From contig CAYJKV010000001.1 of NCBI GenBank assembly GCA_964371255.1, positions 32,573 through 96,572 on the forward strand: 64,000 bases of DNA, in the 5' to 3' direction. Positions 6,068-54,690 of the stretch are shown here, in pieces (position 1 is the first letter of the stretch; the number at the start of each line of letters is the position of its first letter). The notes beneath the pieces are model-generated. The model did not search any database. It was not told where the DNA came from and worked only from the letters and a program-made list of their open reading frames with translations. The stretch is from an uncultured Candidatus Saccharibacteria bacterium. GTDB lineage: Bacteria; Patescibacteriota; Andersenbacteria; UBA10190. The position numbers and the translations under genes are program-made.

Positions 6068-8284
6068 ATGGCATGGATTAAGTGGCTATCAGGTCTGGCG
6101 GTCGGCGTCGTCGTCCTTCTTTTGTTATTGAGCCCAGTCAAATATTATCGGACGGTGAGTGAAGGAACGGATGTGTATGAAGCGCATTATGTTTTATATG
6201 GCGACCGGATACAGGAACAAAGAGTGCAAATAGATCATGAGTTAGTGGGGATAGGAGCGATAGCAGTAGATTTCCGCCGCTCGCAGAACTTGAAACCACT
6301 GGAAGTGACAGTGCGGACGCTGGATGGAGAGATAGTGTCTCGGGGAAAAATTTCTCCCGACAAGGTAGCAGACGATAGCTTCGTCTGGGCTGAATTGAGC
6401 GAGAGGGTAGAACGCCGGGGCGAGGTAGTTATTGAATTCAAAGCACCACAGGCGGAAGTGAAGAATCCGGTGGGGCTACGTTTTGAAAAGGAGAGTGGGC
6501 ACGTAGCGTTGGGGCTGCTGGAGAGGGTGTCGTTAGCCCAGAGAACTGTGATTTGGACACAAGATCATCCGGACAGAGCGTTAAGGCTATGGCTGGTGGT
6601 CACGGGCGGATGTTTAATAGCGCTTATTTTGAGCTTGGCTGGCATACAAAGAAGGATAGGCAAATTGAGTGTAACTACTTGGCTGATTATTGGACTGGCC
6701 ATTATTACATTGTTAGTGCGAATTAGGACGGCGGTGCAGGTGGAAAGCGTATTTGGCGGAGATGCTTTTAACTATTTAATTCAGAGCCAGGCTTGGTTGG
6801 CTGGTGACAATCCATTTGCGGAGGAATTTAGAAGAAAGGCGCCATTTTTACCATTTTTGTTATTACCGGGGTGGCTGGGACTGATTGATCCGATCGTGTG
6901 GGGAAGAATTATTAGCATGATCGCGGCAGCGGGAGCGGTAGTGATGCTGCCCCGATTGTTAATGTTTTTTCAAATACCGCGTCAATTGGCGCTGGGGGCA
7001 GGATTATTGTTGGCTGTTAATAGAAATTTTTGGTGGGAGTCGGTGCATGGTTTGGCTAATACTTTGTATGCCGCGCTGATAGTGGGGGCAGTGTATGCAT
7101 TTATGCTGCACCGCAAGAAATATGGCAGATATTTAGTTGGGGTATTGGTGGGATTGACGACATTAACGCGATGGGAGGGAGGAGCAGTCGCGGCAGTACT
7201 GTTGCCAGCGGTGTGGATTTGGCATCGATTAAATATTAAAACAATTATTTATAGTGGCTGGCCGGCGTTAGTTTTGGTGGCAGTTCCTTTTGTCTTCTGG
7301 CCAATCACTGGTGAAACTGGCATGCGAACTGTGGCTGATATCGCGGGTGACGGGGGACTGAAACTGGCTTATTCATGGGGCGATTTTGTCGGCAACCTGG
7401 AAGGGCTAGAGCTTTTCTTGGGAAGAAACTGGATTTTGGTGGAAGGGGTGGGTGAGCAGTTGGGGTGGCTGGCGGGTGGTTTGGCGAGTGGTCTAGTTTT
7501 AGGCTTCTGGCACCGGAAAAAATACTGGATTTATAGCGGACTGGTGAGATTTCTGCCTTATGGGCTGATAATTATTTTATTGGTCGTATTAGCGGGCAGT
7601 TCGCGGGAGAGCTACAAATACCTGACGATGGTTTTGACGGCACTGACGGGGGCGGGCTGGGGAGCAAGTCTCGTGATCAAACCGAAATTTAGTATACCGG
7701 TGGGCCTAATGCTGATTGGTCAAGTGTTGGTGATAACCATGATATTGCCGAAGTCGAGATATTATTTACAGTTGATTCCCTTCTTATGTGCGGGGTTGAT
7801 ATTTGGCTTGTGGATGATCAGCGATTGGCGGCGGTCATCTGTAAGCCGAGTGGGCACGATTTTGTTGGTCGGAGTTTTCTCGATGATGGTTTATTTGGAC
7901 AGTGCGCGGGCGATGCCCGGCACGATAAGCGGCTATAATGAGAAATCCGGCAATCATACGGTCGTGACGCAAGCGTGCAAATACTTATTAGACAAGCCAG
8001 GAAATGTGGGAGTGGTTGAAGAAAGCGATCTGCCGGCACGGGTTTACTTAACTTTAGAGCGGACGAGAATTTTTCCCATCGAATGGGCAGAGAATATGGA
8101 AGATTTAACCGATGAGGAGATTTATAGGTGGCTCGAGGAATTTAATATCAGCTACATGATCGAGACAACTGCTCAACCAGTGTTTGATATAGTTGAACGG
8201 CACCCGGATGATTTTGAGTTTCTGAAGAAATTTAGCAGCCGGTACACGGAAGAGGAAGCGACGGTATATCGGGTAAAAAAATAG
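6068..8284 (+). CDS. Large polytopic membrane protein (738 aa, more than 12 TM segments plus a C-terminal soluble domain). Possibly a GT-C-type glycosyltransferase.
   Basis: Many hydrophobic segments. Convergent with a GT4 glycosyltransferase. No catalytic motif confidently identified. Confidence 0.45.
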   Translation: MAWIKWLSGLAVGVVVLLLLLSPVKYYRTVSEGTDVYEAHYVLYGDRIQEQRVQIDHELVGIGAIAVDFRRSQNLKPLEVTVRTLDGEIVSRGKISPDKVADDSFVWAELSERVERRGEVVIEFKAPQAEVKNPVGLRFEKESGHVALGLLERVSLAQRTVIWTQDHPDRALRLWLVVTGGCLIALILSLAGIQRRIGKLSVTTWLIIGLAIITLLVRIRTAVQVESVFGGDAFNYLIQSQAWLAGDNPFAEEFRRKAPFLPFLLLPGWLGLIDPIVWGRIISMIAAAGAVVMLPRLLMFFQIPRQLALGAGLLLAVNRNFWWESVHGLANTLYAALIVGAVYAFMLHRKKYGRYLVGVLVGLTTLTRWEGGAVAAVLLPAVWIWHRLNIKTIIYSGWPALVLVAVPFVFWPITGETGMRTVADIAGDGGLKLAYSWGDFVGNLEGLELFLGRNWILVEGVGEQLGWLAGGLASGLVLGFWHRKKYWIYSGLVRFLPYGLIIILLVVLAGSSRESYKYLTMVLTALTGAGWGASLVIKPKFSIPVGLMLIGQVLVITMILPKSRYYLQLIPFLCAGLIFGLWMISDWRRSSVSRVGTILLVGVFSMMVYLDSARAMPGTISGYNEKSGNHTVVTQACKYLLDKPGNVGVVEESDLPARVYLTLERTRIFPIEWAENMEDLTDEEIYRWLEEFNISYMIETTAQPVFDIVERHPDDFEFLKKFSSRYTEEEATVYRVKK

Positions 8285-8329: not shown

Positions 8330-9505
8330 TTAGGCCGGTTTTTTGCTGAGATCGGTATAGAGGTCAATGAATTGCTGAATGACAGTATCGATGGCGTGGT
8401 TTTGAATACGTGCCAGACTGGCTTGGCCCATGCGCCGTAAAAGTGGCTGGTCGGCAAGCAGACGAAGTAAATGCCGGGCAAACTGCTCGTGGTCATGGGC
8501 TGAGAATAATAAGCCATTCTCGTCAGCAGCAACGAGCTCAGGAAGGGCTACGGAGTTGGCCGCGACAACGGGAAGACCGCAGGCCATGGCTTCCATGGTG
8601 GCGATGCTTTGTAATTCGGCGGTACTGGCGGTAGTGAATATTTGGGCTGAGCAGTAGAGGGCAGGCAGATCCGGGGCGGGAACAAAACCGGTAAAAGTAA
8701 CAGCCTGGTCGATTTTTAATCGCCTGGTAAGGTGACGCAGGTGATGAGCGGCGCTGCCATTTTTCGAGCCGACGACGACCAGGTGGATAGGCCTGGTTTG
8801 GAGCACTTGGGCCACTGTGTGCAGGATGGTGTCGATGTTTTTTTCTTTATCTAAGCGGCCAACGGTGATGATGGTGGGCAAGTTAGGCAGCCGGTATTTT
8901 TTTCTAACCGCTGGCGTGTCGTAGTGGGGATTAAATTTTTTCAGATCAATGCCATTGGAAATAACTTGAACAGGTTTGGTGAAACCGTGTTCGATCAGAA
9001 GATTAGCAGCAGTTCGGGTAGGTGTGGTGACGGCGTCCAAGGAAGCAAAGTAATTAATGCATTGCTGCCACAGTTTAGCGTTGAGACGGGCTTCGACAGC
9101 CGGGGGGAGGCGCAAATAATGAGTTAAGTTATCCGGCATAAAATGGTTAGTACCAACGATGGGGATACGTAACTTTCTGGCCTGACGAACGACGGCCTGG
9201 GAAAGCCAGAAATGTCCCTGGGCATGAATGATATCTGGTTGAAACTGTTTGATGGCAGAAGCGATGGTTCGCTGATTCAGGCGCGGTACGGCGATGCGCA
9301 TATTGTTGATATACAAGGGAACTGAACGTATGCCGAGGGTAGTAACTTTGTCTTGTAGATATTTTTCTTGGCGGCCTGATCGGGAGGGGGCGATGACCTG
9401 GACCTGATGCGAGTGCTCAGTCAGTCTTTGGGCTAAACGATAGGTGAAATAAGCAGCGCCATTGACGTGCGGCGGGTAAGTATCGGTGACAATAAGAACT
9501 TTCAT
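8330..9505 (-). CDS. Glycosyltransferase family 4 (GT-B fold).
   Basis: N-terminus MKVLIVTDTYPPHVNGAAY; C-terminal EAMACGLPVVA...E motif (E-x7-E). Confidence 0.8.
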   Translation of the reverse strand: MKVLIVTDTYPPHVNGAAYFTYRLAQRLTEHSHQVQVIAPSRSGRQEKYLQDKVTTLGIRSVPLYINNMRIAVPRLNQRTIASAIKQFQPDIIHAQGHFWLSQAVVRQARKLRIPIVGTNHFMPDNLTHYLRLPPAVEARLNAKLWQQCINYFASLDAVTTPTRTAANLLIEHGFTKPVQVISNGIDLKKFNPHYDTPAVRKKYRLPNLPTIITVGRLDKEKNIDTILHTVAQVLQTRPIHLVVVGSKNGSAAHHLRHLTRRLKIDQAVTFTGFVPAPDLPALYCSAQIFTTASTAELQSIATMEAMACGLPVVAANSVALPELVAADENGLLFSAHDHEQFARHLLRLLADQPLLRRMGQASLARIQNHAIDTVIQQFIDLYTDLSKKPA

Positions 9506-9618
9506 AATTGAGATGACAATTCAGTAAATAAAGAGGTGCGATGACTATAGTAACTATACTGCTTGCAAGCAAGGAAGATAGGTTGGGCGCCGCAGCGTGA
9601 GGGGAAAGAGCGAGCCAG

Positions 9619-10092
9619 TTGGGACTGATACGGACTGGATGTTTACGTGAGGTCCCTTATACTAGAGGTATGGCGGGATGGATTGTTTATGCACTTTTGT
9701 CGGCGGCTTTCGCGGGGCTGGTCGCGATTTTTGGAAAAATTGGCATCAAGGACATTGATTCCACTTTAGCGACCACGGTCCGGTCGGTTATTATGGCAGG
9801 GTTTTTACTCATCACAGCCTTGGTGCTTGGCAAAGTGAAGTATCTATCTTCGATTGATAATAAAGCGTTATTCTTCATCACATTGTCCGGAATAGCCGGG
9901 GCGTTGTCGTGGTTAATGTATTTTGTGGCGTTGCGAACAGGTCCGGCGTCCGGTGTAGCGGCAGTCGATCGGTTAAGTGTTGTGTTTGTGCTAGTCTTCG
10001 CGGTGCTTTTTCTGGCCGAGCAGCTAACGTGGCGAACGGCTATGGGTGCGGGATTTATCACGATTGGTGCGATCTTGATGACTATTCGTTAG
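9619..10092 (+). CDS. EamA-like 4-TM transporter (DMT superfamily half-size protein). True start probably the internal Met (MAGWIVYALL).
   Basis: Four hydrophobic helices of ~140 aa with an EamA-like pattern. Confidence 0.55.
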   Translation: MGLIRTGCLREVPYTRGMAGWIVYALLSAAFAGLVAIFGKIGIKDIDSTLATTVRSVIMAGFLLITALVLGKVKYLSSIDNKALFFITLSGIAGALSWLMYFVALRTGPASGVAAVDRLSVVFVLVFAVLFLAEQLTWRTAMGAGFITIGAILMTIR

Positions 10093-10202: not shown

Positions 10203-11300
10203 GTGGTAAGAACAGATAGATTGTTTTATGGTGAGATGACTATGTTCAATAACTCGATCAAAGAAAAATTACCAGAATTATTAGCGGAACTAGAGAAGCA
10301 GCCGCTACGGGTATGTGTTGAGCCAACCAATGCATGTAACGCGTTGTGTTCTTTTTGCGCGAACAAAGATTGCAAGCGTGAGCGCAAGATTATGAATTTT
10401 GAGCAGTACAAAAAAACCTTAGCACAAATTATGGAGACGGGCAGTAAGGAGCTAAAGTTCACACCAATTATCGGTGATCCGTTCGTAGACCCGGGTTTTT
10501 TAGAAAAGGTTAAATATGCTAAATCGCTTAATTATTTCGAAGTAATATACACGTTTTCCAACATGATTGGAGCTAGTTATGAAAAAGCGGACGAGATAGT
10601 TAATAGCGGCTTAACTCAGTTGATGATATCGACTTGTTTACAGGGCCGGGAAGATTATAAGCGCATCTACGGGGTTGATCGATTTGATCAAGCCATGAAA
10701 AATATTTTGACACTACTGGAAGCGAATCATAAATTTGGCAACCCGCTAGACATCAGCCTTTGGTTAAGGCATGACAAGGGCTTTAATTTAAAAGCCAGTC
10801 CTTTCTATCAGAAAATGCTGCGGTATACTAGTAAGATTAATGTGCTTAATGACGATTATGACAACTGGTCCGGCAAAGTTAAGGAAGAGGATTTACCGAA
10901 AGGCCAGAAGTTCAAGAAGAAAAAAGACAATACTTGGCCGTGCGCGCAATACTACAATGGTTTAGTGGTCGGCCCCTCTGGAGAAGTGGGAATGTGTTGG
11001 GCGAGAGATACTGACTTTGAGCTACTGGTGGGCAACATTAACGATCAGAATTTTAAAGAAATATGGCAGGGCGAAAAAGTGCAGGGATTACGTCAACAGT
11101 GGTTAGCTGGGAAGATACCTTATCCCTGCAGCGACTGCTTGCAGTATTGTTCAGTGCTAGAGCACTCACTCGTGCAAAAATATATTTTAAGACACCTGTG
11201 GAAATATCCACAGTTTTTGCCCCAGGTCGCCCGGTCGAAGTGGCTGGCGCTAGTGGAAAGAGTCTTAGGGATGTGGCGACAATGGCGGCAGATTGGCTAA
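10203..11300 (+). CDS. Radical SAM enzyme with a C-terminal SPASM/twitch-type auxiliary Fe-S domain.
   Basis: CNALCSFC (Cx3Cx2C) near the N-terminus. C-terminal cysteine array WPCAQYY...GMCW...YPCSDCLQYC typical of SPASM. Confidence 0.75.
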   Translation: MVRTDRLFYGEMTMFNNSIKEKLPELLAELEKQPLRVCVEPTNACNALCSFCANKDCKRERKIMNFEQYKKTLAQIMETGSKELKFTPIIGDPFVDPGFLEKVKYAKSLNYFEVIYTFSNMIGASYEKADEIVNSGLTQLMISTCLQGREDYKRIYGVDRFDQAMKNILTLLEANHKFGNPLDISLWLRHDKGFNLKASPFYQKMLRYTSKINVLNDDYDNWSGKVKEEDLPKGQKFKKKKDNTWPCAQYYNGLVVGPSGEVGMCWARDTDFELLVGNINDQNFKEIWQGEKVQGLRQQWLAGKIPYPCSDCLQYCSVLEHSLVQKYILRHLWKYPQFLPQVARSKWLALVERVLGMWRQWRQIG

Positions 11301-11331
11301 CTGTTAAGGAAGATTATTAATATATTTATAT

Positions 11332-11724
11332 ATGAAAGGCTATATCGCTAATATTGAGCAGGAAACAATTAATAATAAAGATTACCGCCGGATTTTATAT
11401 ACCGGACGATATACTCAGCTAGTTGTAATGAGTTTGCAAGCTGGTGAAGAAATCGGGAACGAGATGCATGGGCTAGATCAGTTTATACGCATTGAAGAAG
11501 GTCAAGCGAAGGTGGTACTGAATAACGGCGAAACGGTGAAAGATCTTAAAAACGACTGGATGGTTATTGTGCCAGCCGGAACGTGGCATAATATAATTAA
11601 CACTGGCAAGGAACCGCTGAAACTTTATACTTTGTATTCACCACCTGAACACAGGAAAGATGTAGTACAGGCCACCAAGGCTGATGAGAAAGAAGAACAT
11701 TTTGACGGACAGACCACTGAATAA
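11332..11724 (+). CDS. Small cupin-domain protein.
   Basis: 130 aa; G-x5-H-x-H-like motif region EMHGLDQF...VPAGTWHNIINTG. Confidence 0.6.
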   Translation: MKGYIANIEQETINNKDYRRILYTGRYTQLVVMSLQAGEEIGNEMHGLDQFIRIEEGQAKVVLNNGETVKDLKNDWMVIVPAGTWHNIINTGKEPLKLYTLYSPPEHRKDVVQATKADEKEEHFDGQTTE

Positions 11725-13124: not shown

Positions 13125-13646
13125 TTGGATAAATTTTATGTTATGATAGGGCACATGAAGGAACAAACCAAAAAATTGCGGGTGGGATGGTTTACCTTCA
13201 CTTGCTGTGAGGATTCGACAATAGTTTTTACAGAAGTTTTAAATGATTATTGGCAGGAATGGCGCAAGCGCATTGATTTTGTGCACGCGAGGATTTTGCA
13301 GGCAAAAAACTCGGAGGGGGAGTTAGATGTAGCATTTATTGAAGGGGCAATTTCCTCGGCAGAACAAAAGCAAAGATTAGAGAAGATTAGAAAGCAAGCG
13401 CAGTGGGTGGTGGCCGTGGGATCATGTGCGGTGGTGGGTATGCCCTCGGCGCAGCGTAACCAATTTGACGAAAAAACTAAACAAGAAATTGGCTTTATTT
13501 TAGAAAGATTTCATCACTTAGAGCACGTCATGTCTGTCAAGGACGTGGTCAAGGTGGAAGCGGAGTTGCCAGGTTGTCCGATGGATCCGAAGCAGTTTGT
13601 GGCGGTGGTCAATAAGGCGCTGGAGCATTTTGGCGTTGTTTCTTAA
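13125..13646 (+). CDS. [NiFe]-hydrogenase small subunit, NuoB/HoxY-like, with only the proximal [4Fe-4S] cluster.
   Basis: Four-Cys pattern FTCCEDS ... VGSCAVVG ... PGCPMDP (NuoB/Oxidored_q6 signature). No Tat signal. 173 aa. Confidence 0.75.
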   Translation: MDKFYVMIGHMKEQTKKLRVGWFTFTCCEDSTIVFTEVLNDYWQEWRKRIDFVHARILQAKNSEGELDVAFIEGAISSAEQKQRLEKIRKQAQWVVAVGSCAVVGMPSAQRNQFDEKTKQEIGFILERFHHLEHVMSVKDVVKVEAELPGCPMDPKQFVAVVNKALEHFGVVS

Positions 13647-13660
13647 AGCAAAGCACTAAT

Positions 13661-14956
13661 ATGCATACGATAGATTTAGACTTGTCCTTGGATGAGGTGA
13701 CAAAAGTGGAAGGAGCAGCAAAATTAGCAGTGAAGGTTCGCCGAGGCAAGGTTGAAAAATGCACTTTCGCGATTACTGAATATAAAAGATTTTACACGCA
13801 GGCCATGCGGGGAAAAATGTATAAGTCACTGCCGCAGCTGCTAATGAGGATTTGCGGTACTTGTTCTAACGCTCACCTGCTGGCTTCCATTGAGTCTTGT
13901 GAAAAGGCGCTGGGATATGACGTATCAGGACAAACTAAGATTATGAAGAATTTGACGGTAGATGGTTTATTAATTCGGGATCACGCGTTACATCTGTATT
14001 TATTCGCTTTGCCAGATCTGTATGGCAAGGACAATTTCCTGTCTTTAGACGACCAGGACGAGGAGCAACACCAGCATCTGCATGATGCTTTCGCCATCAA
14101 AGCAGCAGGGAATTATTTAGCGCAAATTATTGCTGGCCGCAGCGTCCACGCGATCAATCCGGTGATTGGCGGTTTTCTAAAAGTACCGTTGCAGGAAGAA
14201 GTAGATGAAGCAATTCGGTCGTTGGTTGAGATCAGGCCGGCGGTGCTGCGGTTAATTAATACGTTTGCCAAGTGTGACTGGCATTTTGATCGGCAGACTA
14301 ATTATATGGCGTTAGTGAGCAATCCCTATGGCTATTTGGAAGGACAAATTAAAGACAATCATGGCAAGGTTATTCCGGAAGATCTATACCGTGATCATCT
14401 GGAACGGGTGGTACTGCCTTACTCCCAAGCGTCTGGCTATACGTATCAGGGGGAGTCTTTTATGGTGGGAGCGCTGGCCCGAATGAATTTGTCCAAAGAA
14501 ACATTGCACGCAGACACTAAAAAGGATGCGGCTAAAGCGTTAGAAAGGTTTCCGTCCACTAATATTTATGACAATAACCTGGCTCAGGCGATTGAGATAT
14601 TAAATGCCATGGACACGGCCGAGTATCTGCTTAGAACAACTAAGTTTAAAGCAGAGAAACCAGCCGAACCGACAAAAAAAGAGGGTGTAGGCGTGGGGGT
14701 AGTGGAAGCACCAAGGGGGACATTATATCATCGGGTTGAAATTGAGACGGATGGCAAAGTGTCGCAAGGCACTATCGTCGTACCAACCGGGCAGAATCAG
14801 ATCAATATCGAACAGGACTTAGCGAGTGTAGCTGAGCAGAAGATAAGCGAGGGGAAAAACAAGGATGAAATTCAATTTGAGATGGAAAAACTGATCCGAG
14901 CTTATGATCCGTGCATGAGCTGCGCGGCGCATTTTTTGGAAGTTAAATGGAACTGA
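13661..14956 (+). CDS. [NiFe]-hydrogenase large (catalytic) subunit.
   Basis: N-terminal L1 motif RICGTCSNAH (RxCGxCxxxH) and C-terminal L2 motif DPCMSCAAH (DPCxxCxxH). 431 aa. Confidence 0.9.
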   Translation: MHTIDLDLSLDEVTKVEGAAKLAVKVRRGKVEKCTFAITEYKRFYTQAMRGKMYKSLPQLLMRICGTCSNAHLLASIESCEKALGYDVSGQTKIMKNLTVDGLLIRDHALHLYLFALPDLYGKDNFLSLDDQDEEQHQHLHDAFAIKAAGNYLAQIIAGRSVHAINPVIGGFLKVPLQEEVDEAIRSLVEIRPAVLRLINTFAKCDWHFDRQTNYMALVSNPYGYLEGQIKDNHGKVIPEDLYRDHLERVVLPYSQASGYTYQGESFMVGALARMNLSKETLHADTKKDAAKALERFPSTNIYDNNLAQAIEILNAMDTAEYLLRTTKFKAEKPAEPTKKEGVGVGVVEAPRGTLYHRVEIETDGKVSQGTIVVPTGQNQINIEQDLASVAEQKISEGKNKDEIQFEMEKLIRAYDPCMSCAAHFLEVKWN

Positions 14957-15382: not shown

Positions 15383-16150
15383 TTAGAGGGTTTGGTTAGC
15401 GAGGTTAATTGATAAGGCTGTGTATTTCTTGAGGTTAGCTAGTTGGCGGGCAGAAATGATATCGCAAGGCGTATCCCAGTGTAAGGATATAATATCGTTG
15501 ACTTGCAGGCGGTCGAAGGTGGGGAGGGCAGTAAAGGGACGGACTATTTGCTGAGTAATAGCGGTGCCGAGAGATAGTTTTTGGTGATGCAGAGTTAATG
15601 GTTGGCGAGTAATAGTTAGCAGCGGACCATTGATGGCCGTTACTTGTCCCCAAGAAATGAGACACTGATCGAGGCTAGCTAATGTGTGGTCGACGTTATG
15701 ATGGCCAGTACGGCGCCAGACATTTAAGACATGAAAGGAATGATGCATGAGCGCACCCCGCGTGAGTTTGTCTTTAAGGCGATCCATGGCTGGACCGGAG
15801 GGGAGGGGCCGGAGATGGTTTGTAATATGTCGATAAAAAGTTTTGGCGGGAATCGTGTCGAGCAAGTGGTTGCCCAGCCAGTAAGCTTCAACGACGCGGT
15901 AATCAAATGGGTCTTTGATATGATTAGCGGCGGCAATTTGCTGGAGGTAAGGAAAAAGGGTCTGAAATTTGGCAACGATATTGGTGAGTCCGGAATCGAC
16001 AGCTCCAGCGTTGATGTAGCTTAATACTTCCTGGTTCATATCCGGTCCGCAGAGGTGGAGACGGTTCGGACCAAAAGCATAACGCGTGCAAACGGCTACA
16101 CCGTCGCGGACCGGCTGATGGCGCGAAGAGACAGCCTGTCTTGCGATCAT
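15383..16150 (-). CDS. Hypothetical protein (255 aa, His-rich), overlapping by 4 nt with (and so probably co-transcribed with) the upstream DMT transporter gene.
   Basis: ORF with no recognised family. HHSFHV, HH, HH clusters. Confidence 0.4.
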   Translation of the reverse strand: MIARQAVSSRHQPVRDGVAVCTRYAFGPNRLHLCGPDMNQEVLSYINAGAVDSGLTNIVAKFQTLFPYLQQIAAANHIKDPFDYRVVEAYWLGNHLLDTIPAKTFYRHITNHLRPLPSGPAMDRLKDKLTRGALMHHSFHVLNVWRRTGHHNVDHTLASLDQCLISWGQVTAINGPLLTITRQPLTLHHQKLSLGTAITQQIVRPFTALPTFDRLQVNDIISLHWDTPCDIISARQLANLKKYTALSINLANQTL

Positions 16151-17070
16151 GGGTGCGGCGAATAATCAGGTTGGGGGCGATGATGAGCGGGTAAATTACC
16201 AGCGCGGGAAATAATAAGGATGGTGCCTAGACTGATCAGGGCGGTGCTTAGCAACTGCAGGGACGGAAAAGTGTGAGTGATGAAAATGGCAGTGAGGATG
16301 TTGGTGACAAGAGTGGCTGGTACTAGCAGGCTGGCGACTAATACGGCTGGAGCATACTTAAGGGCGGTGTACCAGGTGACGACGTAGCCGGTAAGCAATA
16401 GGCCGGTGAGAATAGTCCAACTCCATTGCGCGGGCGAGAGAGTGAGAATGACGCTGGTTTTGTGTTGAGCAATTAGCACTAGACTGATGACAATGGAGCC
16501 AATTAACATGCGGGTGCTGGCGACCAATAAACTGGAGCAACTATTTAATACTTTCTTGGATATGATATTTTCAATCGCCCACAGCAGGGTGGCGCCGAGA
16601 ACCATAAATTCACCAATGTGACCGGTAAAGCGCGGGATGCCAAATAGTCCTAAGTTACCGATTAGTAATAAACACAGGGCGCCCAGTTGCAGCCAGCTAA
16701 TCTTTTCCTTAAGGAAGGGTACGGCGAGCAGGGCAACCCAGAGAAAAAGTGTCTTATGAATAAAAGCTGCCTGGGCGACCGGAATGAGCGATAGGCCAGT
16801 AAAGAAAAGAATAAAAGGAACTCCACCGCCCAATATACCGATAAATAGCAGCTGAATAATTTGTGGTTTTCGCAGGAGTTTAATTTCGCGCCAGCGACTG
16901 GTGATTAAAATAGCACTGAGTAGTAAAAGGACTGTAATGGCATTTTTAAGGAAGGTGAAGACTATTGGATCCGCAACGGTTGTGACTGCGATCTTGGATA
17001 AAAAATTGTTGGTTCCGGAAATGAAAGCCGTTACCAGACCTAAGATTATGGCAAGCTTTAGTTTGGTCAT
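16147..17070 (-). CDS. EamA/DMT-superfamily transporter (10 TM).
   Basis: Two EamA-like halves; 307 aa, highly hydrophobic. Confidence 0.75.
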   Translation of the reverse strand: MTKLKLAIILGLVTAFISGTNNFLSKIAVTTVADPIVFTFLKNAITVLLLLSAILITSRWREIKLLRKPQIIQLLFIGILGGGVPFILFFTGLSLIPVAQAAFIHKTLFLWVALLAVPFLKEKISWLQLGALCLLLIGNLGLFGIPRFTGHIGEFMVLGATLLWAIENIISKKVLNSCSSLLVASTRMLIGSIVISLVLIAQHKTSVILTLSPAQWSWTILTGLLLTGYVVTWYTALKYAPAVLVASLLVPATLVTNILTAIFITHTFPSLQLLSTALISLGTILIISRAGNLPAHHRPQPDYSPHP

Positions 17071-17076
17071 AGAAGC

Positions 17077-18315
17077 CTAGGTGGGAATAAGCTTATTGAG
17101 GTCAAAATTAGAATCGGCTAGCTCAGATTTTTTATCGGCAATGTTTGTATTACTAGCGATTATTTTGCTAATGGCTTGCAGGATAGGTGTTTGGTTGATT
17201 AAGACGGCACCGACCACTTGATCGCTGACGGTAATAATTTGAGCGTGCTGGTTGGCGGATAGTCCGTGGCGAATGATGGTCGAAATCGTCTTTTGCGGAC
17301 TGACGTTGCCAATAAAGGTAATAGAAGTATCGAAGCCGTGAGAAGTATAAAAAGAGACGAAGGTGAAGGGTGTTTTAGCGCCTAACATATTCAAACCGGC
17401 GATCCGGCCTTGCTCTTGGGCGTTAACCCAGTTACCGAGTTGCACCTCTTCTTCGAGAATCGGATCAGAAAATTGTGATACGTCGCCGGCGGTCCAAACG
17501 TCTGGCAGATTAGTTTGCAAGTGTTGGTCAGCGAGGATGCCACGGTCTATTTTAATACCTGAATCCTTGACCCAATCAATATTACAACAGGCACCGATCC
17601 CGCAAATAACTGCATCACAGGGAATGGAAGTGCCGTCCTGCAAAGTGACCCCGGTCACATTAATGTTGCCATCGATATGAGTGACCTGAGCGCGTCGGAT
17701 CATTTTAACTCCGTTTTGTTCAATAGCTTGTTCAACGATCTGACTGGCGGTCTCATCCAGGATGGATTCCCAAAACCGGTTTTCCCGGATGATAATAGTT
17801 ACCTCTGCCCCGGACATACGCATAATATTGGCCATTTCAAAACTGATAAAACCGCCACCCACGGCCACGGCACGCTTAACTGTGCTAACCGATTCAATAA
17901 TTCCTTTGCCTTGGTCAAGGGTGCGCAGATAATGGACCCCGCGTTTTTCAATACCAGGCACGGCGAGGGGTCGAGGCGATGTGCCCGTGGCTAAGAGTAG
18001 CTTGTCGTACTTAATACCAGAATTGTCGTCCAGATGGATCAGCTTGTCTTGGTGGTCTAAGCTAGTAACGGTTCGGCCGCCGATAAAAGTGATGTTTTTG
18101 TCTTGATACCAGTTCTCATCGCGCAACCAAATTTGGTCAAAAGGAATTTTTCCCAGAAAAAAATTGGGTTTCGACAGCATGATGCGGGAATACAGGTAGT
18201 GCGGCTCGTCGCTAATAATCGCTATAGTGCCGGTGGAGTCATGTTGACGAATAGTACCGGCCGCGGTAGTGCCGGCCACACCGCCTCCGACAATTACATA
18301 TTTATATTCCGGCAT
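17077..18315 (-). CDS. FAD-dependent pyridine nucleotide-disulfide oxidoreductase, ferredoxin/rubredoxin-reductase-like.
   Basis: N-terminal GxGxxG VIVGGGVAGTTAA; second NAD(P) fold VAVGGGFISFEMA; 412 aa. Confidence 0.8.
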   Translation of the reverse strand: MPEYKYVIVGGGVAGTTAAGTIRQHDSTGTIAIISDEPHYLYSRIMLSKPNFFLGKIPFDQIWLRDENWYQDKNITFIGGRTVTSLDHQDKLIHLDDNSGIKYDKLLLATGTSPRPLAVPGIEKRGVHYLRTLDQGKGIIESVSTVKRAVAVGGGFISFEMANIMRMSGAEVTIIIRENRFWESILDETASQIVEQAIEQNGVKMIRRAQVTHIDGNINVTGVTLQDGTSIPCDAVICGIGACCNIDWVKDSGIKIDRGILADQHLQTNLPDVWTAGDVSQFSDPILEEEVQLGNWVNAQEQGRIAGLNMLGAKTPFTFVSFYTSHGFDTSITFIGNVSPQKTISTIIRHGLSANQHAQIITVSDQVVGAVLINQTPILQAISKIIASNTNIADKKSELADSNFDLNKLIPT

Positions 18316-18318
18316 GGA

Positions 18319-18573
18319 TTAACTAACTAGTTGGCCATCCTTGTCGTAGAGGGATATGGCCTTGGTGGGGCAGGCTTGGGCCGAGGCAATTAAAGCGTCA
18401 TCATCAGGCGCATTGGCGTCCTTAACAACAACCTTATTCTCGTTGTCCATTTCATAAGCAGCTGCAACCGGTGCCAGGCATGATTGAGCACCAATACACA
18501 AGTCGCGGTCGACGACGATCTTGGCGATTTTTGAACCTGCTTTATTGCGTAGATATTCTATTTGGTTGGACAT
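18319..18573 (-). CDS. Small single-cluster ferredoxin. Start assigned to the internal ATG (MSNQIEY...).
   Basis: VVDRDLCIGAQSCLAPV ... ACPTKAI pattern of single-[3Fe/4Fe-4S] ferredoxins. Directly downstream of the oxidoreductase. Confidence 0.7.
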   Translation of the reverse strand: MSNQIEYLRNKAGSKIAKIVVDRDLCIGAQSCLAPVAAAYEMDNENKVVVKDANAPDDDALIASAQACPTKAISLYDKDGQLVS

Positions 18574-18637
18574 AAAAAAATAATGAAAGATAAATAGGGT
18601 TGCGTTTAAATATATTATAGCCATAGTAGTAAAGTAT

Positions 18638-19831
18638 ATGCGAGTTTATCTTGACCACGCGGCCACCACCGCTTGTGATAATGAGGTGATGCAAGCGATG
18701 CAGCCTTATTGGCAAACGAAGTTTGGTAACCCATCGTCGCCTTATGGTATGGGCGGGGAGGCGGAAGAGGCTTTGCAAACAGCCAGACAACAAGTGGCGG
18801 ATTTGATAGGGGGAAGTCGCGATGAAATTGTCTTCGTGGGAAGCGGGACAGCGAGCGATAACATGGCTGTCAAGGGGGTAGCGTTCAAGTGGCAAAATAA
18901 AGGACGACATATTATTACGACACAAATTGAGCATCCGGCCGTACTGGAAAGTTGTCGCTGGCTGAATAAACAGGGATTTGAAATAACGTATCTGCCGGTC
19001 GATGCGTGGGGGGTCGTGCAATTAAGTGAATTAAGAAAGGCGATCCGGGATGATACCATTTTAGTGTCGGTCATGCATGGTAATAATGAGGTCGGCTCCC
19101 TACAGCCGATTGAGCAGATTAGCAAAATCACGCGGGAAAAGGGAGTTTATCTGCACGTTGACGCAGTGCAAACGGGCGGCAGCGTACCGATCGACGTTAA
19201 AAAATTAGGAGTTGATTTGTTAAGTTTATCAGCCCATAAACTTTACGGGCCCAAGGGCGTGGGCGTGTTATATATCAGAAAGGGCGTAACTTTGGATCCA
19301 TGGCTGCATGGCGGCCAGCAGGAGAATCGGTGGCGTGCCTCGACACAAAATGTGCCGGGCATTGTCGGTTTTGGACGGGCGGCAGAATTGGCGCGGGAAA
19401 GAATGACGAAGGATTCGGTCCGGATGGCTACATTACGAGCTAAGCTGCAGAACGGCCTGGTCAGTCGCATACCAGATATTAAAATCAATGGCCATCCGAC
19501 GGACCGGGTGCCAAATAATTTGAATATTTCAGTGGTCGGGGTAGAGGGAGAAGGGATGGTATTATACTTAGATACGGCAGGGGTAATGTGTTCGACCGGT
19601 TCCGCGTGTTCATCGCACAATTTACAGCCATCACATGTTTTATTAGCGATGGGTTTAAAACATGAAGTAGCTCATGGTTCGTTACGGTTTACATTAGGGC
19701 GAGAAACAACGACTCAACAAATAGATTATGTGCTGGAAGTTTTACCGCCGATTGTGAGTAGGTTACGGTCTATGTCGCCATTGGTGCAGACGCAGGCCGG
19801 CCAACCGAAGATAATGGTCGGCGCTCACTAG
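18638..19831 (+). CDS. iscS: Cysteine desulfurase (IscS/NifS family).
   Basis: PLP-lysine motif SAHKLYGPKG; active-site loop SSGSACSS; 397 aa. Confidence 0.9.
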   Translation: MRVYLDHAATTACDNEVMQAMQPYWQTKFGNPSSPYGMGGEAEEALQTARQQVADLIGGSRDEIVFVGSGTASDNMAVKGVAFKWQNKGRHIITTQIEHPAVLESCRWLNKQGFEITYLPVDAWGVVQLSELRKAIRDDTILVSVMHGNNEVGSLQPIEQISKITREKGVYLHVDAVQTGGSVPIDVKKLGVDLLSLSAHKLYGPKGVGVLYIRKGVTLDPWLHGGQQENRWRASTQNVPGIVGFGRAAELARERMTKDSVRMATLRAKLQNGLVSRIPDIKINGHPTDRVPNNLNISVVGVEGEGMVLYLDTAGVMCSTGSACSSHNLQPSHVLLAMGLKHEVAHGSLRFTLGRETTTQQIDYVLEVLPPIVSRLRSMSPLVQTQAGQPKIMVGAH

Positions 19832-19876
19832 CTAAAAATTGCGTGTCAGGATAGTTGACTATTAAAATAGGCTCAT

Positions 19877-20254
19877 ATGCTTCAATACAGCGAAAAGGTC
19901 AAAGACCACTTAATGAATCCACGGAATGTAGGAACGATGGACGAACCCAGCGGGGTTGGGTCCGTTGGAAATCCAGTGTGCGGCGATATTATGGAAATGT
20001 ACCTGAAAGTAGAAAACGGTGTGATTACCGATGCTAAATTTCGCACGTTTGGTTGCGGCGCGGCGATTGCCACCAGCTCGATGGTGACAGAGCTGGTGAA
20101 GGGCAAAACGTTGGAAGAAGCGATGAATATTACGAAAGAAGTGCTAGTAAATGAGCTCGACGGTTTGCCACCGATTAAGACGCATTGCTCGGTGTTGGGG
20201 ATTGAGGCTTTACATAAAGCCATCGCTGATTATAAGGCTAAGAGTGTTGCTTGA
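19877..20254 (+). CDS. iscU: Fe-S cluster assembly scaffold (IscU/NifU N-terminal type).
   Basis: NPRNVG, CGD, FGCGAAIA and KTHCS motifs; 125 aa. Confidence 0.9.
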   Translation: MLQYSEKVKDHLMNPRNVGTMDEPSGVGSVGNPVCGDIMEMYLKVENGVITDAKFRTFGCGAAIATSSMVTELVKGKTLEEAMNITKEVLVNELDGLPPIKTHCSVLGIEALHKAIADYKAKSVA

Positions 20255-20318
20255 TTGACGATGACTTATTTGGTTCGGAACGCGGGACAGGTCAGGGCGA
20301 TCGTGTTAGAATAGTGTT

Positions 20319-20906
20319 ATGGAAAAAGGAACAAAGAAGTCGGTCCGTAAATGGAGCTTAACTTTTATTAGCGGTGCTTTCGCGGTGGCACTGGCGATGT
20401 TGTACGTTCTAGTATTACGCAGTGTCGCCGTGCAGCTCGAACAGCCACCACCACAAATGACGGAACCATATCCTGATATTAGTACAGAACAAAAGTGTGA
20501 GGAGATGGGTGGCCGCTGGGTGGCGATGCCGGAAGGTAAAGGTGTGGGGACGGAACAGATGGCAGTACCAGTGAGGGAGGGACAAACTATCAGCGCGTAT
20601 TGCCAGGGGCCGCTTAGATTTGAACGGGAAAGAGAAAAACAAATGGAAGATAGCCGACAAATGTCACTGTTTGTGTTCGCGGTGGGTGGGGCGATAGCGG
20701 TAGCGAGCAGTTTGCTGATCGTGCAGCTTAGACCGGTGGCGCCAGGATTAATGATGGGTGGCATCGCCTCGTTTTTTGTAGCTGGCATTCAGGTGTGGAT
20801 GCTGGCGCCGGGACTGGGCAGGCTGGCGACGATCGTGGTCATCTTTATTATATTGCTTGGGGTTGGGGTGTACGTTTTTCGCGAAAAGGAAGGCGAGGAA
20901 ATCTAG
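20319..20906 (+). CDS. Hypothetical membrane protein (N-terminal TM, two C-terminal TM).
   Basis: Hydrophobicity pattern only. Confidence 0.35.
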   Translation: MEKGTKKSVRKWSLTFISGAFAVALAMLYVLVLRSVAVQLEQPPPQMTEPYPDISTEQKCEEMGGRWVAMPEGKGVGTEQMAVPVREGQTISAYCQGPLRFEREREKQMEDSRQMSLFVFAVGGAIAVASSLLIVQLRPVAPGLMMGGIASFFVAGIQVWMLAPGLGRLATIVVIFIILLGVGVYVFREKEGEEI

Positions 20907-21076
20907 CCTTGAGACGGCATGGCGGCTACCAAAACCTTGACTGGTTTGGCGGCCGGTTTGTTTATAACAATTAGGGGGGGTATTGAAGAGAAGGTGTGAT
21001 AGCTAGGGATGAGTGAGTTGAATAAATATATATGATATGGTAATACTTGATATGATATATCTGGTATAATGTTTTT

Positions 21077-21838
21077 ATGGCCAAAGACCTTTATATATAC
21101 ACGAGCGCAGAGAAACAATGGGGACGGGTACGACCGCTGAGGGGCTGGACGGAACGGAAGGTATTAGCGTTCTCGCCCCACGCTGATGATTTAAGTATTG
21201 CGGCTGGCGGATTCTTGCATCTACTGGGCAAGCAAAATGACGTGCAGCCGGTATTAGGTTTTACGGGATGGCGGGGAGTAGGTAATGGTCTAACCAAGAA
21301 TGAAGCGACCGTCTGGCGGGAGAAGGAAATGACAGCCGAGGCGCAATTGTTAGGCATTAAACCGCCAGTATTTTTGAGACTGTTGTCATATGAAAATACA
21401 ATGGAGGAGGATATTAATAAGGACAGGGCGACGGTGAAGGAACTAATTGATCAAGAGCAACCAGACATAATCTTTTTGCCGAGCAAGGATGACAGCCAAC
21501 CGCGGCATAGTCTGCTGACAAAATTAATCTGGCAGGCAGTAGAGAAAAGCTCTGCACCAGCGACCCTCGTTTATTATGAAACGCCCTGGTCGTTATTCGC
21601 GGCCGATCGGATTGATTTACTGGTACCGCTTGATCAGGCAGTAATGACGCGGAAAATAAAGGCGATAAAAGCGCACGCATCGCAGTTAGCGCGGACGAAT
21701 TTTGTGAAGATTAGCCAGACGATGCTGGAATACCGTGCGCTGACGGTACCGGAACAACTGGTGAGTGGTTTTGGTTCGCAGAATGATTTTGGGCAATGGA
21801 TGGAGGTTTATGCTATGGAGCGCTATAAAGAAGAATGA
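21077..21838 (+). CDS. PIG-L/LmbE-family N-acetylglucosaminyl deacetylase.
   Basis: FSPHADDLSIAAGG (HxDD zinc-binding motif of the LmbE family). Confidence 0.7.
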   Translation: MAKDLYIYTSAEKQWGRVRPLRGWTERKVLAFSPHADDLSIAAGGFLHLLGKQNDVQPVLGFTGWRGVGNGLTKNEATVWREKEMTAEAQLLGIKPPVFLRLLSYENTMEEDINKDRATVKELIDQEQPDIIFLPSKDDSQPRHSLLTKLIWQAVEKSSAPATLVYYETPWSLFAADRIDLLVPLDQAVMTRKIKAIKAHASQLARTNFVKISQTMLEYRALTVPEQLVSGFGSQNDFGQWMEVYAMERYKEE

Positions 21839-22584
21839 TGGGCATAGAAAGAATTGTAGTGGATGATTATGAGGAATTGTCCAAACAAGCGGCCAAGCTA
21901 GTCGCGCAGAGAATAAAAGAAAAGCCGACGCTGGTTTTAGGATTAGCGACTGGCTCGACACCAATTGGTTTGTATGAACGATTGGTGGCGATGTATCGCC
22001 AAGGTGAAATTGATTGGTCGCAAGTAACGACTTTTAACCTGGATGAGTATTGCGGGTTAGAGACCAGCCATCCGCAAAGTTACCGATATTTTATGGATGA
22101 ACATTTGTTCAGCCGGGTGAATATTGATCGTGGAAGGACTAATTTTCCCAGCGAAAGAAAGGTTGCAGGTTATGAACGGGCAATCAAGGAGGCCGGCGGC
22201 ATTGATCTGCAAATACTAGGCATCGGGCGGAATGGGCACATAGGTTTTAATGAACCAGGGTCGCAGTTTGATTCGCAAACGCGCGTGGTGGAGCTAACCG
22301 AGACGACGATTCAGGACAATGCACGGTTTTTTGTGCGGAGAGATGAGGTGCCAAGAAAAGCGGTAACTATGGGTTTAGAGACTATTATGGAGTCCCGGGA
22401 AATATTATTGCTAGCCAGCGGTGCCAATAAGGCGGAGGTGGTGCAGAGAATGTTGTCTCAAAAGCCGTCCTGGGATGTACCGGCTTCGGTATTGCAAGGA
22501 CATAATAAGGTGATAATAATGACAGATAGAGAAGCGGCAGGGACAATCGCCCCGGATCACCAATTGCCCATGACCAAACATTGA
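21835..22584 (+). CDS. nagB: Glucosamine-6-phosphate deaminase.
   Basis: LGLATGSTP and LGIGRNGHIGFNEPGS signatures. 4-nt overlap with the deacetylase gene. Confidence 0.8.
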   Translation: MMGIERIVVDDYEELSKQAAKLVAQRIKEKPTLVLGLATGSTPIGLYERLVAMYRQGEIDWSQVTTFNLDEYCGLETSHPQSYRYFMDEHLFSRVNIDRGRTNFPSERKVAGYERAIKEAGGIDLQILGIGRNGHIGFNEPGSQFDSQTRVVELTETTIQDNARFFVRRDEVPRKAVTMGLETIMESREILLLASGANKAEVVQRMLSQKPSWDVPASVLQGHNKVIIMTDREAAGTIAPDHQLPMTKH

Positions 22585-51184: not shown

Positions 51185-51242
51185 TAGTTGTTCTTTTGAG
51201 GAGCAGGTTGTAATAAGCATTTTAAGGAATTAGTTTGAATAT

Positions 51243-52034
51243 ATGTACAAGTTAAGAAAATTTTATCCACCAGGTTTTAATCCCCAGCAATATTGGGCAG
51301 ATAGATACGCACAGGAGCATATTGCTGGCCGCAGCAGCGATGAGTTTCGACGGCAGGATTTTTGGCCGCTCATGAAGCAGCATTTACCCCGAGATAAGAA
51401 AATACTGGACGCTGGTTGCGGCGTTGGGGGATGGATTATATTTTTAAAGGAGGAGGGTTTTGATGTCGAGGGTATTGATAGCGCGGCGCGGACGGTGCGG
51501 GCAATGACGGAATATGACCCTGAAATAAAAGTGAAGATAGCAGACGTAGATGCTATCCCCTATCCAGATAACTTGTTTGGGGGAGTGGTCGCAGTGGGCG
51601 CCCTAGAATACGTGGAGGATAGAGTGGATGAGGCACTTAGGGAAGTTAATCGGGTGCTTGGGCCGGAGGGTGTATTTCTTCTGGAGGTACCGATTACAAA
51701 CTTATTGCGGCGCCTATTTTATATTCCGCTAAAAGAGCTGGAAAGACGGATAAAGGGATGGCAGGGTAATGAACCTGTCTTTGCCAATTATTTTTTTGAT
51801 CGACATGAGCTGGTCAGGAAGCTCAAAGCGACTGGTTTTTCTATTATCACAGAGCAGCCGCACGAGTTGCCAGACAGTAACAGTCATTATGGTTTATACG
51901 TTGATTGGAAATGGTTAAGAGGCAGCGAGCCGTATCATCTGAATTTTCTTGGGTTGGCCATCAAAAAATTAGCCAACCTTATTTCACCATGGATTGCTTC
52001 GACCGGTATGGTGATTGTCGCAAAGAAGCGTTGA
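51243..52034 (+). CDS. Class I SAM-dependent methyltransferase.
   Basis: Motif I ILDAGCGVGGW; motif post-I DVEGID. Confidence 0.7.
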   Translation: MYKLRKFYPPGFNPQQYWADRYAQEHIAGRSSDEFRRQDFWPLMKQHLPRDKKILDAGCGVGGWIIFLKEEGFDVEGIDSAARTVRAMTEYDPEIKVKIADVDAIPYPDNLFGGVVAVGALEYVEDRVDEALREVNRVLGPEGVFLLEVPITNLLRRLFYIPLKELERRIKGWQGNEPVFANYFFDRHELVRKLKATGFSIITEQPHELPDSNSHYGLYVDWKWLRGSEPYHLNFLGLAIKKLANLISPWIASTGMVIVAKKR

Positions 52035-52059
52035 CTAATTTTTGTTTGATAACATCAGA

Positions 52060-52155
52060 TTAAAAACCTCCGCCAAAGACAGCGAGACCGAGAGTTAGTG
52101 CAATGAAAACAAGAAGAGCGAGGGTTAACCACTGCATCGTATTTTGCTCATTCAT
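52060..52155 (-). CDS. Unannotated small hydrophobic peptide (31 aa, single TM): MNEQNTMQWLTLALLVFIALTLGLAVFGGGF.
   Basis: ATG preceded by GGGAGGTGATCC. Same SD/spacer architecture as the acidic peptide at 32114. Confidence 0.3.
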   Translation of the reverse strand: MNEQNTMQWLTLALLVFIALTLGLAVFGGGF

Positions 52156-54073: not shown

Positions 54074-54149
54074 AGTTTAAGCGTAGCATATTGGGAACAA
54101 TGTTTAGAGGAGATCGGGAAGATGGCAGAGAACATCAAAAAAGAAGTAA

Positions 54150-54656: not shown

Positions 54657-54690
54657 TAAGTAAGTAGGAATAATGTTTCTCTAACATAGC

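Follow-up and report, generated by a model that had tools for sequence, protein, structure and literature searches.

A 64,000-nucleotide stretch of contig CAYJKV010000001.1 from an uncultured Candidatus Saccharibacteria bacterium (GTDB lineage Andersenbacteria), hereafter called the window, encodes a radical S-adenosylmethionine (SAM) enzyme, here named rSAM, that carries a Twitch-type auxiliary-cluster domain. The evidence leans toward rSAM tailoring a carbohydrate in cell-envelope glycan assembly rather than acting as a peptide maturase, and the broader statement, that it has a glycan-pathway role outside the maturation of peptides that are ribosomally synthesized and modified post-translationally (RiPPs), can be made with more assurance and is likely to hold. 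We favor the glycan-tailoring reading because glycan genes accompany the family in all nine gene contexts, rSAM in three operons overlaps the flanking glycan genes at its start and stop codons, relatives are fused to glycosyltransferases and methyltransferases, the family profile matches the sugar-oxidizing enzyme BtrN, and no precursor peptide gene was found. The original prediction, made from the DNA letters, had suggested a non-RiPP role feeding the glycan machinery or, alternatively, a protein-targeting maturase; the contexts, fusions, and BtrN match support the first suggestion, and the second has been weakened.

The rSAM gene and its protein

The mechanically called open reading frame (ORF) runs from 10203 to 11300 on the + strand and opens at a GTG at 10203. 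All 17 homologues are 334 to 352 amino acids (aa) long, their alignment begins at the second in-frame ATG, at 10242, and the sequence GGTGAG lies at 10230-10235, 7 nt 5' of that codon. For these reasons ATG 10242 is the most likely start, which gives a predicted protein of 352 aa. The gene and the features predicted within it are as follows.

10242..11300, + strand: rSAM/Twitch enzyme gene, 352 aa plus stop (Pfam, homologue alignment)
10335..10358, + strand: CX3CX2C motif for the SAM-binding [4Fe-4S] cluster (CNALCSFC; C32, C36, and C39)
10941..11138, + strand: Twitch-type auxiliary-cluster domain, with C234, C252 (GX4C), and C296 and C299 (CX2C)
11154..11297, + strand: basic amphipathic C-terminal tail, the last ~48 aa (composition, hydrophobic moment, and AlphaFold2 [AF2] model)

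The CNALCSFC radical SAM site named in the original prediction is present, and the protein belongs to the superfamily by its match to Pfam Radical_SAM (PF04055; E value, 2.6e-10; 41.2 bits against a cut-off of 29.5). C32, C36, and C39 are invariant within the 18-sequence family alignment and are kept in 98 to 99% of 126 distant full-length relatives. Pfam SPASM (PF13186) is also matched above its cut-off (E value, 1e-9; 38.9 bits against 21.5). Subfamily assignment with Pfam and NCBIfam returned generic models only: in NCBIfam every subfamily model scored far below its cut-off, the best at 62 bits against 380 and over the generic core only, and the MoaA model (TIGR02666) reached 33 bits against a cut-off of 284. 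The subfamily check that had been proposed at the outset therefore ends with no characterized subfamily in either database claiming rSAM.

A PADLOC scan of rSAM gave a weak viperin-core match only, to the prokaryotic viperins (pVips; E value, 9e-6), and identity as a defense system was dropped, as the match is confined to an N-terminal core of ~80 residues and is not full length. To our knowledge, pVips are without an auxiliary-cluster domain.

The C-terminal tail has 6 to 11 lysines and arginines against 0 to 5 aspartates and glutamates in 18 of 18 family members, its hydrophobic moment is the highest of the protein, and the AF2 model shows a long helix from residue 324 to 352. By these properties the tail is a possible peripheral membrane anchor.

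A one-cluster Twitch domain

The C-terminal SPASM cysteine array that had been predicted is there in part, in the form of a Pfam SPASM match and four invariant cysteines, but its type is that of Twitch rather than full SPASM. C234, C252, C296, and C299 are invariant in the 18-sequence family and 100% conserved in the 126 distant relatives. The next cysteine, C303, is threonine in 6 of the 18 family members and cysteine in only about 1% of the distant relatives, and rSAM has no further cysteine C-terminal to it. The canonical seven-cysteine SPASM motif (CX9-15GX4C...CX2CX5CX3C...C), which serves two auxiliary clusters, is thus absent. Twitch has been described as a shortened SPASM domain that ligates a single auxiliary cluster (PMC9012708), and the four invariant cysteines of rSAM align with cysteines of the twitch region of BtrN. 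Because only four auxiliary cysteines are conserved, enough for one cluster, we assign rSAM a one-cluster Twitch domain, and the sequence predicts that this domain binds a [4Fe-4S] cluster ligated by cysteines only.

Residue 254 (window 11001-11003), two residues after C252, is cysteine in 93% of the distant relatives and alanine in the window enzyme; it is alanine in most of the subfamily and cysteine in P0004-6 and P0017.

Relationship to BtrN and other characterized enzymes

When the family profile was compared with all PDB sequences, BtrN was matched at an E value of 1.5e-10 over the CX3CX2C and twitch regions, with four of four auxiliary cysteines aligned. It was the only PDB sequence match spanning both the radical SAM site and the auxiliary domain; the next profile match, SkfB (E value, 1.3e-3), covered the radical SAM core only. 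BtrN also ranked first in a Foldseek search with the AF2 model of rSAM (predicted local distance difference test [pLDDT], 80.9), and GDGT-MAS was among the fold matches. The predicted structure puts rSAM firmly in the SPASM/Twitch group. Taken alone, the structure comparison does not distinguish sugar-acting from peptide-acting enzymes, and it is the sequence profile that favors BtrN.

BtrN (PDB 4M7T/4M7S) oxidizes a secondary alcohol of 2-deoxy-scyllo-inosamine in the butirosin pathway, and its auxiliary cluster, which is ligated by four cysteines, is the proposed electron acceptor in this sugar oxidation (PMC9012708). The two enzymes share a radical SAM core followed by Twitch, with the four auxiliary cysteines corresponding one to one, and the substrate of BtrN is carbohydrate-like. 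rSAM differs in being ~100 aa longer, with its basic C-terminal tail, and in its surroundings, which are those of cell-envelope glycan assembly, with aminoglycoside or 2-deoxystreptamine genes in none of nine contexts. With its low identity to BtrN and no aminoglycoside context, rSAM does not qualify as a BtrN orthologue (DOIA dehydrogenase).

NeoN, HygY, and SpeY, the aminoglycoside Twitch epimerases and dehydrogenases, are likened to rSAM as members of an enzyme class that acts on sugar C-H bonds. According to work cited in PMC10991966, Cys249 of NeoN is the hydrogen atom donor, and a title cited in the same source states that HygY is an epimerase in which mutation of one cysteine reveals dehydrogenase activity. 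The calditol synthase Cds and the hopanoid enzyme HpnJ are functional precedents only, for the remodeling of a lipid-linked sugar by a radical SAM enzyme: a glycosyltransferase puts the sugar on a lipid, and the radical SAM enzyme then remodels it (PMC13459092). Their proposed chemistry is contraction of the sugar ring on archaeal and hopanoid lipids, whereas nothing in the rSAM data indicates contraction.

A rare family associated with glycan genes

The rSAM family consists of 17 clusters among 5.8 billion proteins, and 2 matches were found in a one-genome-per-species set of 185,579 species. Candidatus Andersenbacteria RIFCSPHIGHO2_02_FULL_46_16 encodes an rSAM that is 87% identical to that of the window, in a syntenic locus, and a Deltaproteobacteria metagenome-assembled genome encodes one that is 53% identical. 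The window accordingly derives from an Andersenbacteria-like member of the candidate phyla radiation (CPR). The family is marked by a length of ~335 to 352 aa, the CX3CX2C motif with four auxiliary cysteines, a DDYDNW motif, the basic tail, and a location in glycan gene clusters, and the window rSAM has all of these.

Nine distinct neighborhoods were compared, with family members 53 to 88% identical to the window rSAM. Genes for glycosyltransferases or for sugar and nucleotide-sugar pathways were found in nine of nine independent contexts, with a glycosyltransferase (GT) one or two genes from rSAM in every one. The neighborhood conservation check proposed originally thus came out in favor of the glycan genes; the cupin gene that follows rSAM in the window fared worse, occurring only in the closest relatives (see below). 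The contexts are as follows, with identity to the window rSAM.

Context 1, window type: GT-C, GT4, (DedA), EamA, rSAM, cupin, 405-aa protein, hydrogenase
Context 2, L012/L013 (68%): rSAM alone, two genes from a divergent 641-aa PMT_2 GT-C; without cupin
Context 3, L014 (71%): adjacent convergent glycosyltransferase-like fragment; without cupin
Context 4, L001/L002 (60%): Capsule_synth-GT-rSAM-methyltransferase in a NeuB/CTP_transf_3/Epimerase_2/Polysacc_synt/GT87/GT2 cluster
Context 5, L006/L007 (59%): core of Capsule_synth-GT-rSAM-methyltransferase
Context 6, L008 (56%): dense nucleotide-sugar operon
Context 7, L009 (56%): dense nucleotide-sugar operon
Context 8, L010/L011 (57%): dense nucleotide-sugar operon
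Context 9, L016: GT2 directly upstream of rSAM

Between them, the L008-L011 contexts contain GT4, GT15, DegT aminotransferases, UDP-glucose dehydrogenases, SDR epimerases, RmlC, GNAT, methyltransferases, and Wzy. In L008, L009, and L010, the start and stop codons of rSAM overlap flanking glycosyltransferase, methyltransferase, and epimerase genes.

The wider family and its fusions

When 1.84 billion cluster representatives (50% identity) were searched exhaustively with a profile, rSAM fell into a much larger family of 301 representatives at E values of ≤1e-30 and 5,685 at ≤1e-10, mostly ~350 aa long and matched over their full length. None of 10 sampled proteins of this wider family reached an NCBIfam cut-off, and no characterized member turned up in the papers searched. 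Fusions join the rSAM domain to a Rhamno_transf domain (P0109), to an FkbM/RfbT-type methyltransferase (P0118), and to TPR (P0138), and one protein of 1,977 aa (P0060) combines two rSAM/SPASM domains with a methyltransferase, TPR, and GT2. The rSAM domains of the fusions are 25 to 33% identical to the window rSAM.

On the Brachyspira hyodysenteriae plasmid pBHWA1 (NC_012226.1, 7270-20028; L017), seven rSAM genes, several in tandem, lie interspersed with rfbC, rfbF, and genes for rhamnan synthesis and glycosyltransferases. Five of the seven match the window rSAM at 24 to 26% identity, with full-length homology over 80 to 86%. These rSAM/SPASM proteins likewise belong to glycan loci but are distant paralogues in the wider family, outside the 17-cluster subfamily. 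Part of this gene block is virulence associated and is reportedly missing in strains of reduced virulence (PMC4267127). The gene order on an Azospirillum plasmid is rfbC-TPR-rSAM/SPASM-GT41. A viral contig from IMG/VR (L103, 5929-6897) has one rSAM relative, 25% identical.

Tests for a peptide or protein maturase

SPASM-type enzymes can be maturases, and rSAM could be one of the RiPP, anaerobic sulfatase-maturating enzyme (anSME), or EpeE type, with a substrate that is encoded elsewhere or is itself a protein of larger size (a surface glycoprotein or a neighboring enzyme, for example). The Pfam SPASM match is compatible with this explanation, as is the fact that peptides are the substrates of two Twitch enzymes, SkfB and EpeE. 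The search for a precursor covered ORFs of at least 20 aa in 9.5-11.95 kb and ORFs of at least 10 aa within and around four intergenic gaps, compared with 13 related loci. No + strand ORF of at least 20 aa was found in the 149-nt gap upstream of rSAM, the 31-nt rSAM-cupin gap, or the 177-nt gap after the cupin, and none of the ORFs of 10 to 21 aa is conserved at the corresponding position in the related loci. The earlier statement that no small precursor ORF is visible within 150 nt on either side of rSAM has thus withstood the re-scan that had been proposed. The sole marginal short-ORF match (9541-9600) was rejected as a precursor; it maps within a DedA gene of the related locus L015. Rfam gave no match over 9.4-12 kb, and a riboswitch is therefore unlikely.

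Across the nine rSAM contexts we found no small conserved ORF, peptidase, or RiPP-type exporter, and there was no sulfatase gene among the neighbors scanned. Only 31 residues precede the cluster motif of rSAM, so there is no room for a RiPP recognition element (RRE) or other peptide recognition domain, and Pfam finds no extra domain. The NCBIfam maturase models scored 20 to 60 bits against cut-offs of 250 to 850, and no anSME model is among the best 25 of 26 NCBIfam matches. rSAM accordingly has none of the marks of a RiPP maturase (an adjacent precursor, and an RRE or a match to a curated model), and with four conserved auxiliary cysteines against the seven of a canonical SPASM protein such as anSME, it lacks those of anSME as well. 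What speaks for a maturase beyond the domain itself is the company of distant relatives, which have TPR domains or lie beside GT41, and on this balance we regard the explanation as unlikely.

Neighboring genes in the window

The genes that had been named around rSAM, a GT4, a giant GT-C-like membrane protein, DMT (EamA) transporters, and a 130-aa cupin, are all confirmed. They and the nearby hydrogenase are as follows.

6068..8284, + strand: 738-aa polytopic membrane protein with predicted GT-C fold (AF2 and Foldseek)
8330..9505, - strand: GT4 (GT-B fold) glycosyltransferase (Glyco_trans_1_4, 5.9e-37; Glyco_transf_4, 2.1e-29)
9670..10092, + strand: half-size EamA/DMT membrane protein of 140 aa, candidate flippase/transporter (EamA, E value 1.5e-20)
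11332..11724, + strand: 130-aa Cupin_2 protein, BH2720-like, beginning 31 nt past the rSAM stop
13125-13646 and 13661-14956: small and large subunits of a [NiFe] hydrogenase, 1.8 kb downstream of rSAM (Pfam)
16147-17070: full-size EamA transporter (Pfam)

The 738-aa protein has no Pfam or NCBIfam match. Its AF2 model, built on 15 homologues (pLDDT, 86), shows an N-terminal beta-sandwich (approximately residues 23 to 155) and a C-terminal alpha/beta domain, and the top 19 Foldseek matches in the PDB are all GT-C proteins, among them ALG9, ArnT, ALG12, PglB, STT3, and Emb, with a TM-score of ~0.5 on the target. There is also a weak profile match to GPI mannosyltransferase 1. At the fold level, the model confirms this neighbor as a GT-C. 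GT-C enzymes draw on polyprenyl-phosphate-linked donors. At 15 clusters in 5.8 billion proteins, the family of this protein is rare, and relatives keep synteny with DEAD-helicase and TypA genes even without rSAM, as in L019. No NCBIfam equivalog was matched at its cut-off by the GT4 protein. The small EamA protein has a weak match to ArnF (E value, 3e-4), far below the cut-off, and is 93% identical in L003.

DedA/VTT and PAP2 genes are present in the loci of close relatives. Both families are linked with polyprenyl-phosphate recycling. A 193-aa DedA/VTT gene lies between GT4 and EamA in L015 (8736-9317), and the corresponding part of the window (9506-9669) is without DedA. A 14-aa stretch from window 9541-9600, the marginal match mentioned above, lies inside the L015 DedA gene, which suggests that this segment is the remnant of a deleted DedA gene.

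The 405-aa ORF at 11902-13119 matches no family; its N-terminal segment is hydrophobic and, by eye, probably spans the membrane. The L003 counterpart is 57% identical. The ORF ends 5 nt before the hydrogenase small subunit, and it could be part of the hydrogenase operon. Farther downstream, the region 15383-22584 includes DUF6390, the full-size EamA transporter, a pyridine-nucleotide disulfide oxidoreductase, a class V (cysteine-desulfurase-like) aminotransferase, a PIG-L family deacetylase, and a protein resembling glucosamine-6-phosphate isomerase/6-phosphogluconolactonase. At 49304-55575, a 626-aa fusion of NeuB and a xylose-isomerase-like TIM barrel, a class I methyltransferase, an SDR, an aldo-keto reductase, and CTP_transf_3 suggest a pathway for a CMP-activated keto-acid sugar, ~38 kb from rSAM; this set recalls the NeuB/CTP_transf_3 cluster that surrounds rSAM in L001.

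No other 1.5 kb of the window has a GC content as low as that of rSAM and the cupin together (0.419; mean, 0.475; standard deviation, 0.020). The GC content at third codon positions (GC3) of rSAM is ordinary at 0.49, so the dip is largely a matter of amino acid composition, and it was rejected as good evidence for recent horizontal transfer. GC skew is strongly positive, at 0.14 to 0.33 per 2 kb, over the whole window, including minus-strand genes such as GT4, and therefore follows the DNA strand and not the coding strand. No excess of promoter-like sites over shuffled sequence was seen; terminator-like sites were commoner than in shuffles, and none was useful for setting operon boundaries.

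The adjacent cupin

The cupin is probably cotranscribed with rSAM, and the two might form a dedicated module, for example for radical oxidation to a keto-sugar followed by isomerization or epimerization by the cupin. The genes lie on the same strand 31 nt apart, share the low-GC stretch, and are retained as a pair in all Andersenbacteria-like relatives, but the normal GC3 of rSAM, with the low GC traced to amino acid composition, takes weight from the shared GC content, and comparison of the loci takes more. The cupin is closely related to BH2720 (2oa2; E value, 1.5e-32), a structural-genomics protein without an assigned function, and it has 449 metagenome relatives, of which the 80 closest loci (52 to 80% identity) were examined for their neighborhoods. 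rSAM occurs in 3 of these 80, all Andersenbacteria-like. In the other 77, rSAM is absent over distances of up to 6 kb and the neighbors are heterogeneous, the commonest neighbor family being found in 6 of the 80 loci. A conserved rSAM-cupin partnership was rejected on these counts, and with it the weight that the original prediction had placed on the adjacency.

From the side of rSAM, the BH2720-like type is absent from all other contexts of the family, including the members at 68 to 71% identity, which are without a cupin. A cupin does lie a few genes from rSAM in L008 and L010, as a module might lead one to expect, but these are of another type (WxcM/FdtA-like, by eye) to which the window cupin has no detectable similarity. 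In another CPR locus, L096 (681-6393), TypA, a 42%-identical small EamA gene, and a 64%-identical cupin gene lie within 6 kb, without GT-C, GT4, or rSAM, suggesting that a cupin already resided where rSAM was inserted. Read most simply, the cupin and perhaps EamA too belong to this neighborhood, and rSAM came beside them in one lineage. We conclude that the adjacency is probably incidental and that a dedicated module is improbable, to about the same degree as a maturase.

BH2720-like cupins also occur near TypA in the CPR-like metagenome contigs L030 and L048, with no GT-C, GT4, or rSAM. The one locus that lends the module some further color is L018 (7001-15602), where a 60% GT-C homologue precedes two different rSAM/SPASM genes (412 and 344 aa; 22 to 23% identical to the window rSAM) and genes for an SDR epimerase, a cupin of 140 aa, and a PA14/Big_5 surface protein of 774 aa. 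This locus repeats the window arrangement with nonorthologous genes, its cupin belongs to the other type, and the 465-kb contig that holds it also carries the family member P0005.

Proposed substrate and chemistry

Our inferences on the substrate, chemistry, and membrane location of rSAM are as follows. By analogy with BtrN, reductive cleavage of SAM would give a 5'-deoxyadenosyl radical, this radical would take a hydrogen from a sugar carbon, and the auxiliary cluster would help to resolve the resulting substrate radical. A BtrN-like dehydrogenation, in which the sugar would lose two electrons and become a keto-sugar, is the likeliest single outcome, though by itself it is a tentative proposal that we would not bet on; epimerization or rearrangement would be the alternatives. 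rSAM probably acts at the cytoplasmic face of the membrane on a sugar or oligosaccharide linked to a nucleotide or to polyprenyl phosphate. A polyprenyl-phosphate-linked substrate is attractive because of the GT-C neighbor, the small EamA protein with its weak ArnF match, the DedA and PAP2 genes of relatives, and the basic tail; even so, we put a lipid-linked substrate at slightly short of an even chance relative to a nucleotide-linked one.

In this bacterium the sugar could be made, flipped, and transferred to a surface acceptor by GT4, the small EamA protein, and the GT-C enzyme. The arrangement recalls the ArnC/ArnD/ArnE-F/ArnT route: the window has a GT-C-fold protein with ArnT in its top structural matches and a 140-aa EamA protein with the ArnF match, rSAM would be the candidate cytoplasmic tailoring enzyme, and DedA and PAP2 genes are added in close relatives of the window locus. 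It differs in that the cytoplasmic glycosyltransferase is GT4 and not GT2 and in that the genes do not form one tight operon.

The same membrane features would also suit an enzyme that modifies a membrane or carrier lipid in its lipid part, for example in the polyprenyl or acyl chain, and leaves the sugar alone. The basic amphipathic tail, the neighborhood rich in membrane proteins, and the DedA and PAP2 genes of close relatives fit such a role, and the SPASM-type enzymes Tes/GDGT-MAS and Gms act on lipids (PMC13459092), with GDGT-MAS among the fold matches of rSAM. Those lipid-acting enzymes have two auxiliary clusters (PMC13459092), whereas the rSAM family conserves cysteines for one; most contexts are soluble nucleotide-sugar and glycosyltransferase operons, not lipid operons, and the fusions bring in glycosyltransferase and glycan-methyltransferase domains. 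We consider action on a lipid chain quite unlikely, more so than either a maturase or a cupin module. Maturation of a metallocofactor enzyme, such as the [NiFe] hydrogenase encoded at 13125-14956, is disfavored and very improbable, and the hydrogenase was rejected as a target on gene context: the top partial NCBIfam matches of rSAM are indeed W_rSAM_matur and rSAM_Geo_metal, but these are restricted to the generic core (62 bits against 380), and a hydrogenase or metalloenzyme gene occurs in none of the eight contexts other than the window type.

Several observations weigh against carbohydrate tailoring in glycan assembly. rSAM is just 15 to 19% identical to BtrN. In the window itself, GT4 lies on the opposite strand to rSAM, 149 nt separate the small EamA gene from rSAM, no nucleotide-sugar genes flank rSAM, and the local arrangement may be partly incidental, as the TypA-EamA-...-cupin order of L096 without rSAM suggests. 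Some very distant relatives (~20 to 24% identity) adjoin TPR/GT41 proteins, which could mean a protein glycosylation context. The glycosyltransferases adjacent to rSAM are not orthologous between contexts, on which ground a common partner glycosyltransferase was rejected, and the sugar pathways vary between a nonulosonic-acid type and an amino/uronic-sugar type, so that no shared substrate emerges; the association is therefore with glycan assembly generally and not with one sugar. Members of the family are without experimental study, and guilt by association does not give a substrate.

Carbohydrate tailoring in glycan assembly can be extended into a bolder proposal, which we offer as speculation with the odds clearly against it. 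The rSAM family would then be a new class of glycan-tailoring radical enzymes working at the membrane on polyprenyl-phosphate-linked sugar; in a genome-reduced CPR bacterium, a pathway of GT4, rSAM, a small EamA flippase, and GT-C would lead to an unusual surface sugar, perhaps a keto, epimerized, or rearranged one; and the ~300 related clusters of bacterial O-antigen, capsule, and lipooligosaccharide loci, with the virulence-linked Brachyspira plasmid genes among them, would amount to an unexplored layer of radical chemistry by which surface polysaccharides are diversified.

Implications

The characterized Twitch sugar enzymes that we found (BtrN, NeoN, HygY, and SpeY) all belong to aminoglycoside pathways, and we found none for cell-envelope glycan assembly. 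rSAM is of a known enzyme class but represents an uncharacterized subfamily, and a larger family, found consistently in capsule, O-antigen, and glycosylation loci rather than antibiotic pathways. For annotation, a gene labeled radical SAM/SPASM need not encode a RiPP maturase. The finding overturns no expectations; it is a solid and testable lead for radical chemistry in the diversification of surface glycans. If glycan tailoring is borne out, radical chemistry would join the known means by which bacteria diversify their surfaces, could account for unusual sugars met in structural studies, and would offer new biocatalysts for the functionalization of carbohydrate C-H bonds. Since it can proceed without oxygen, such chemistry would suit anaerobes and candidate-phyla bacteria.

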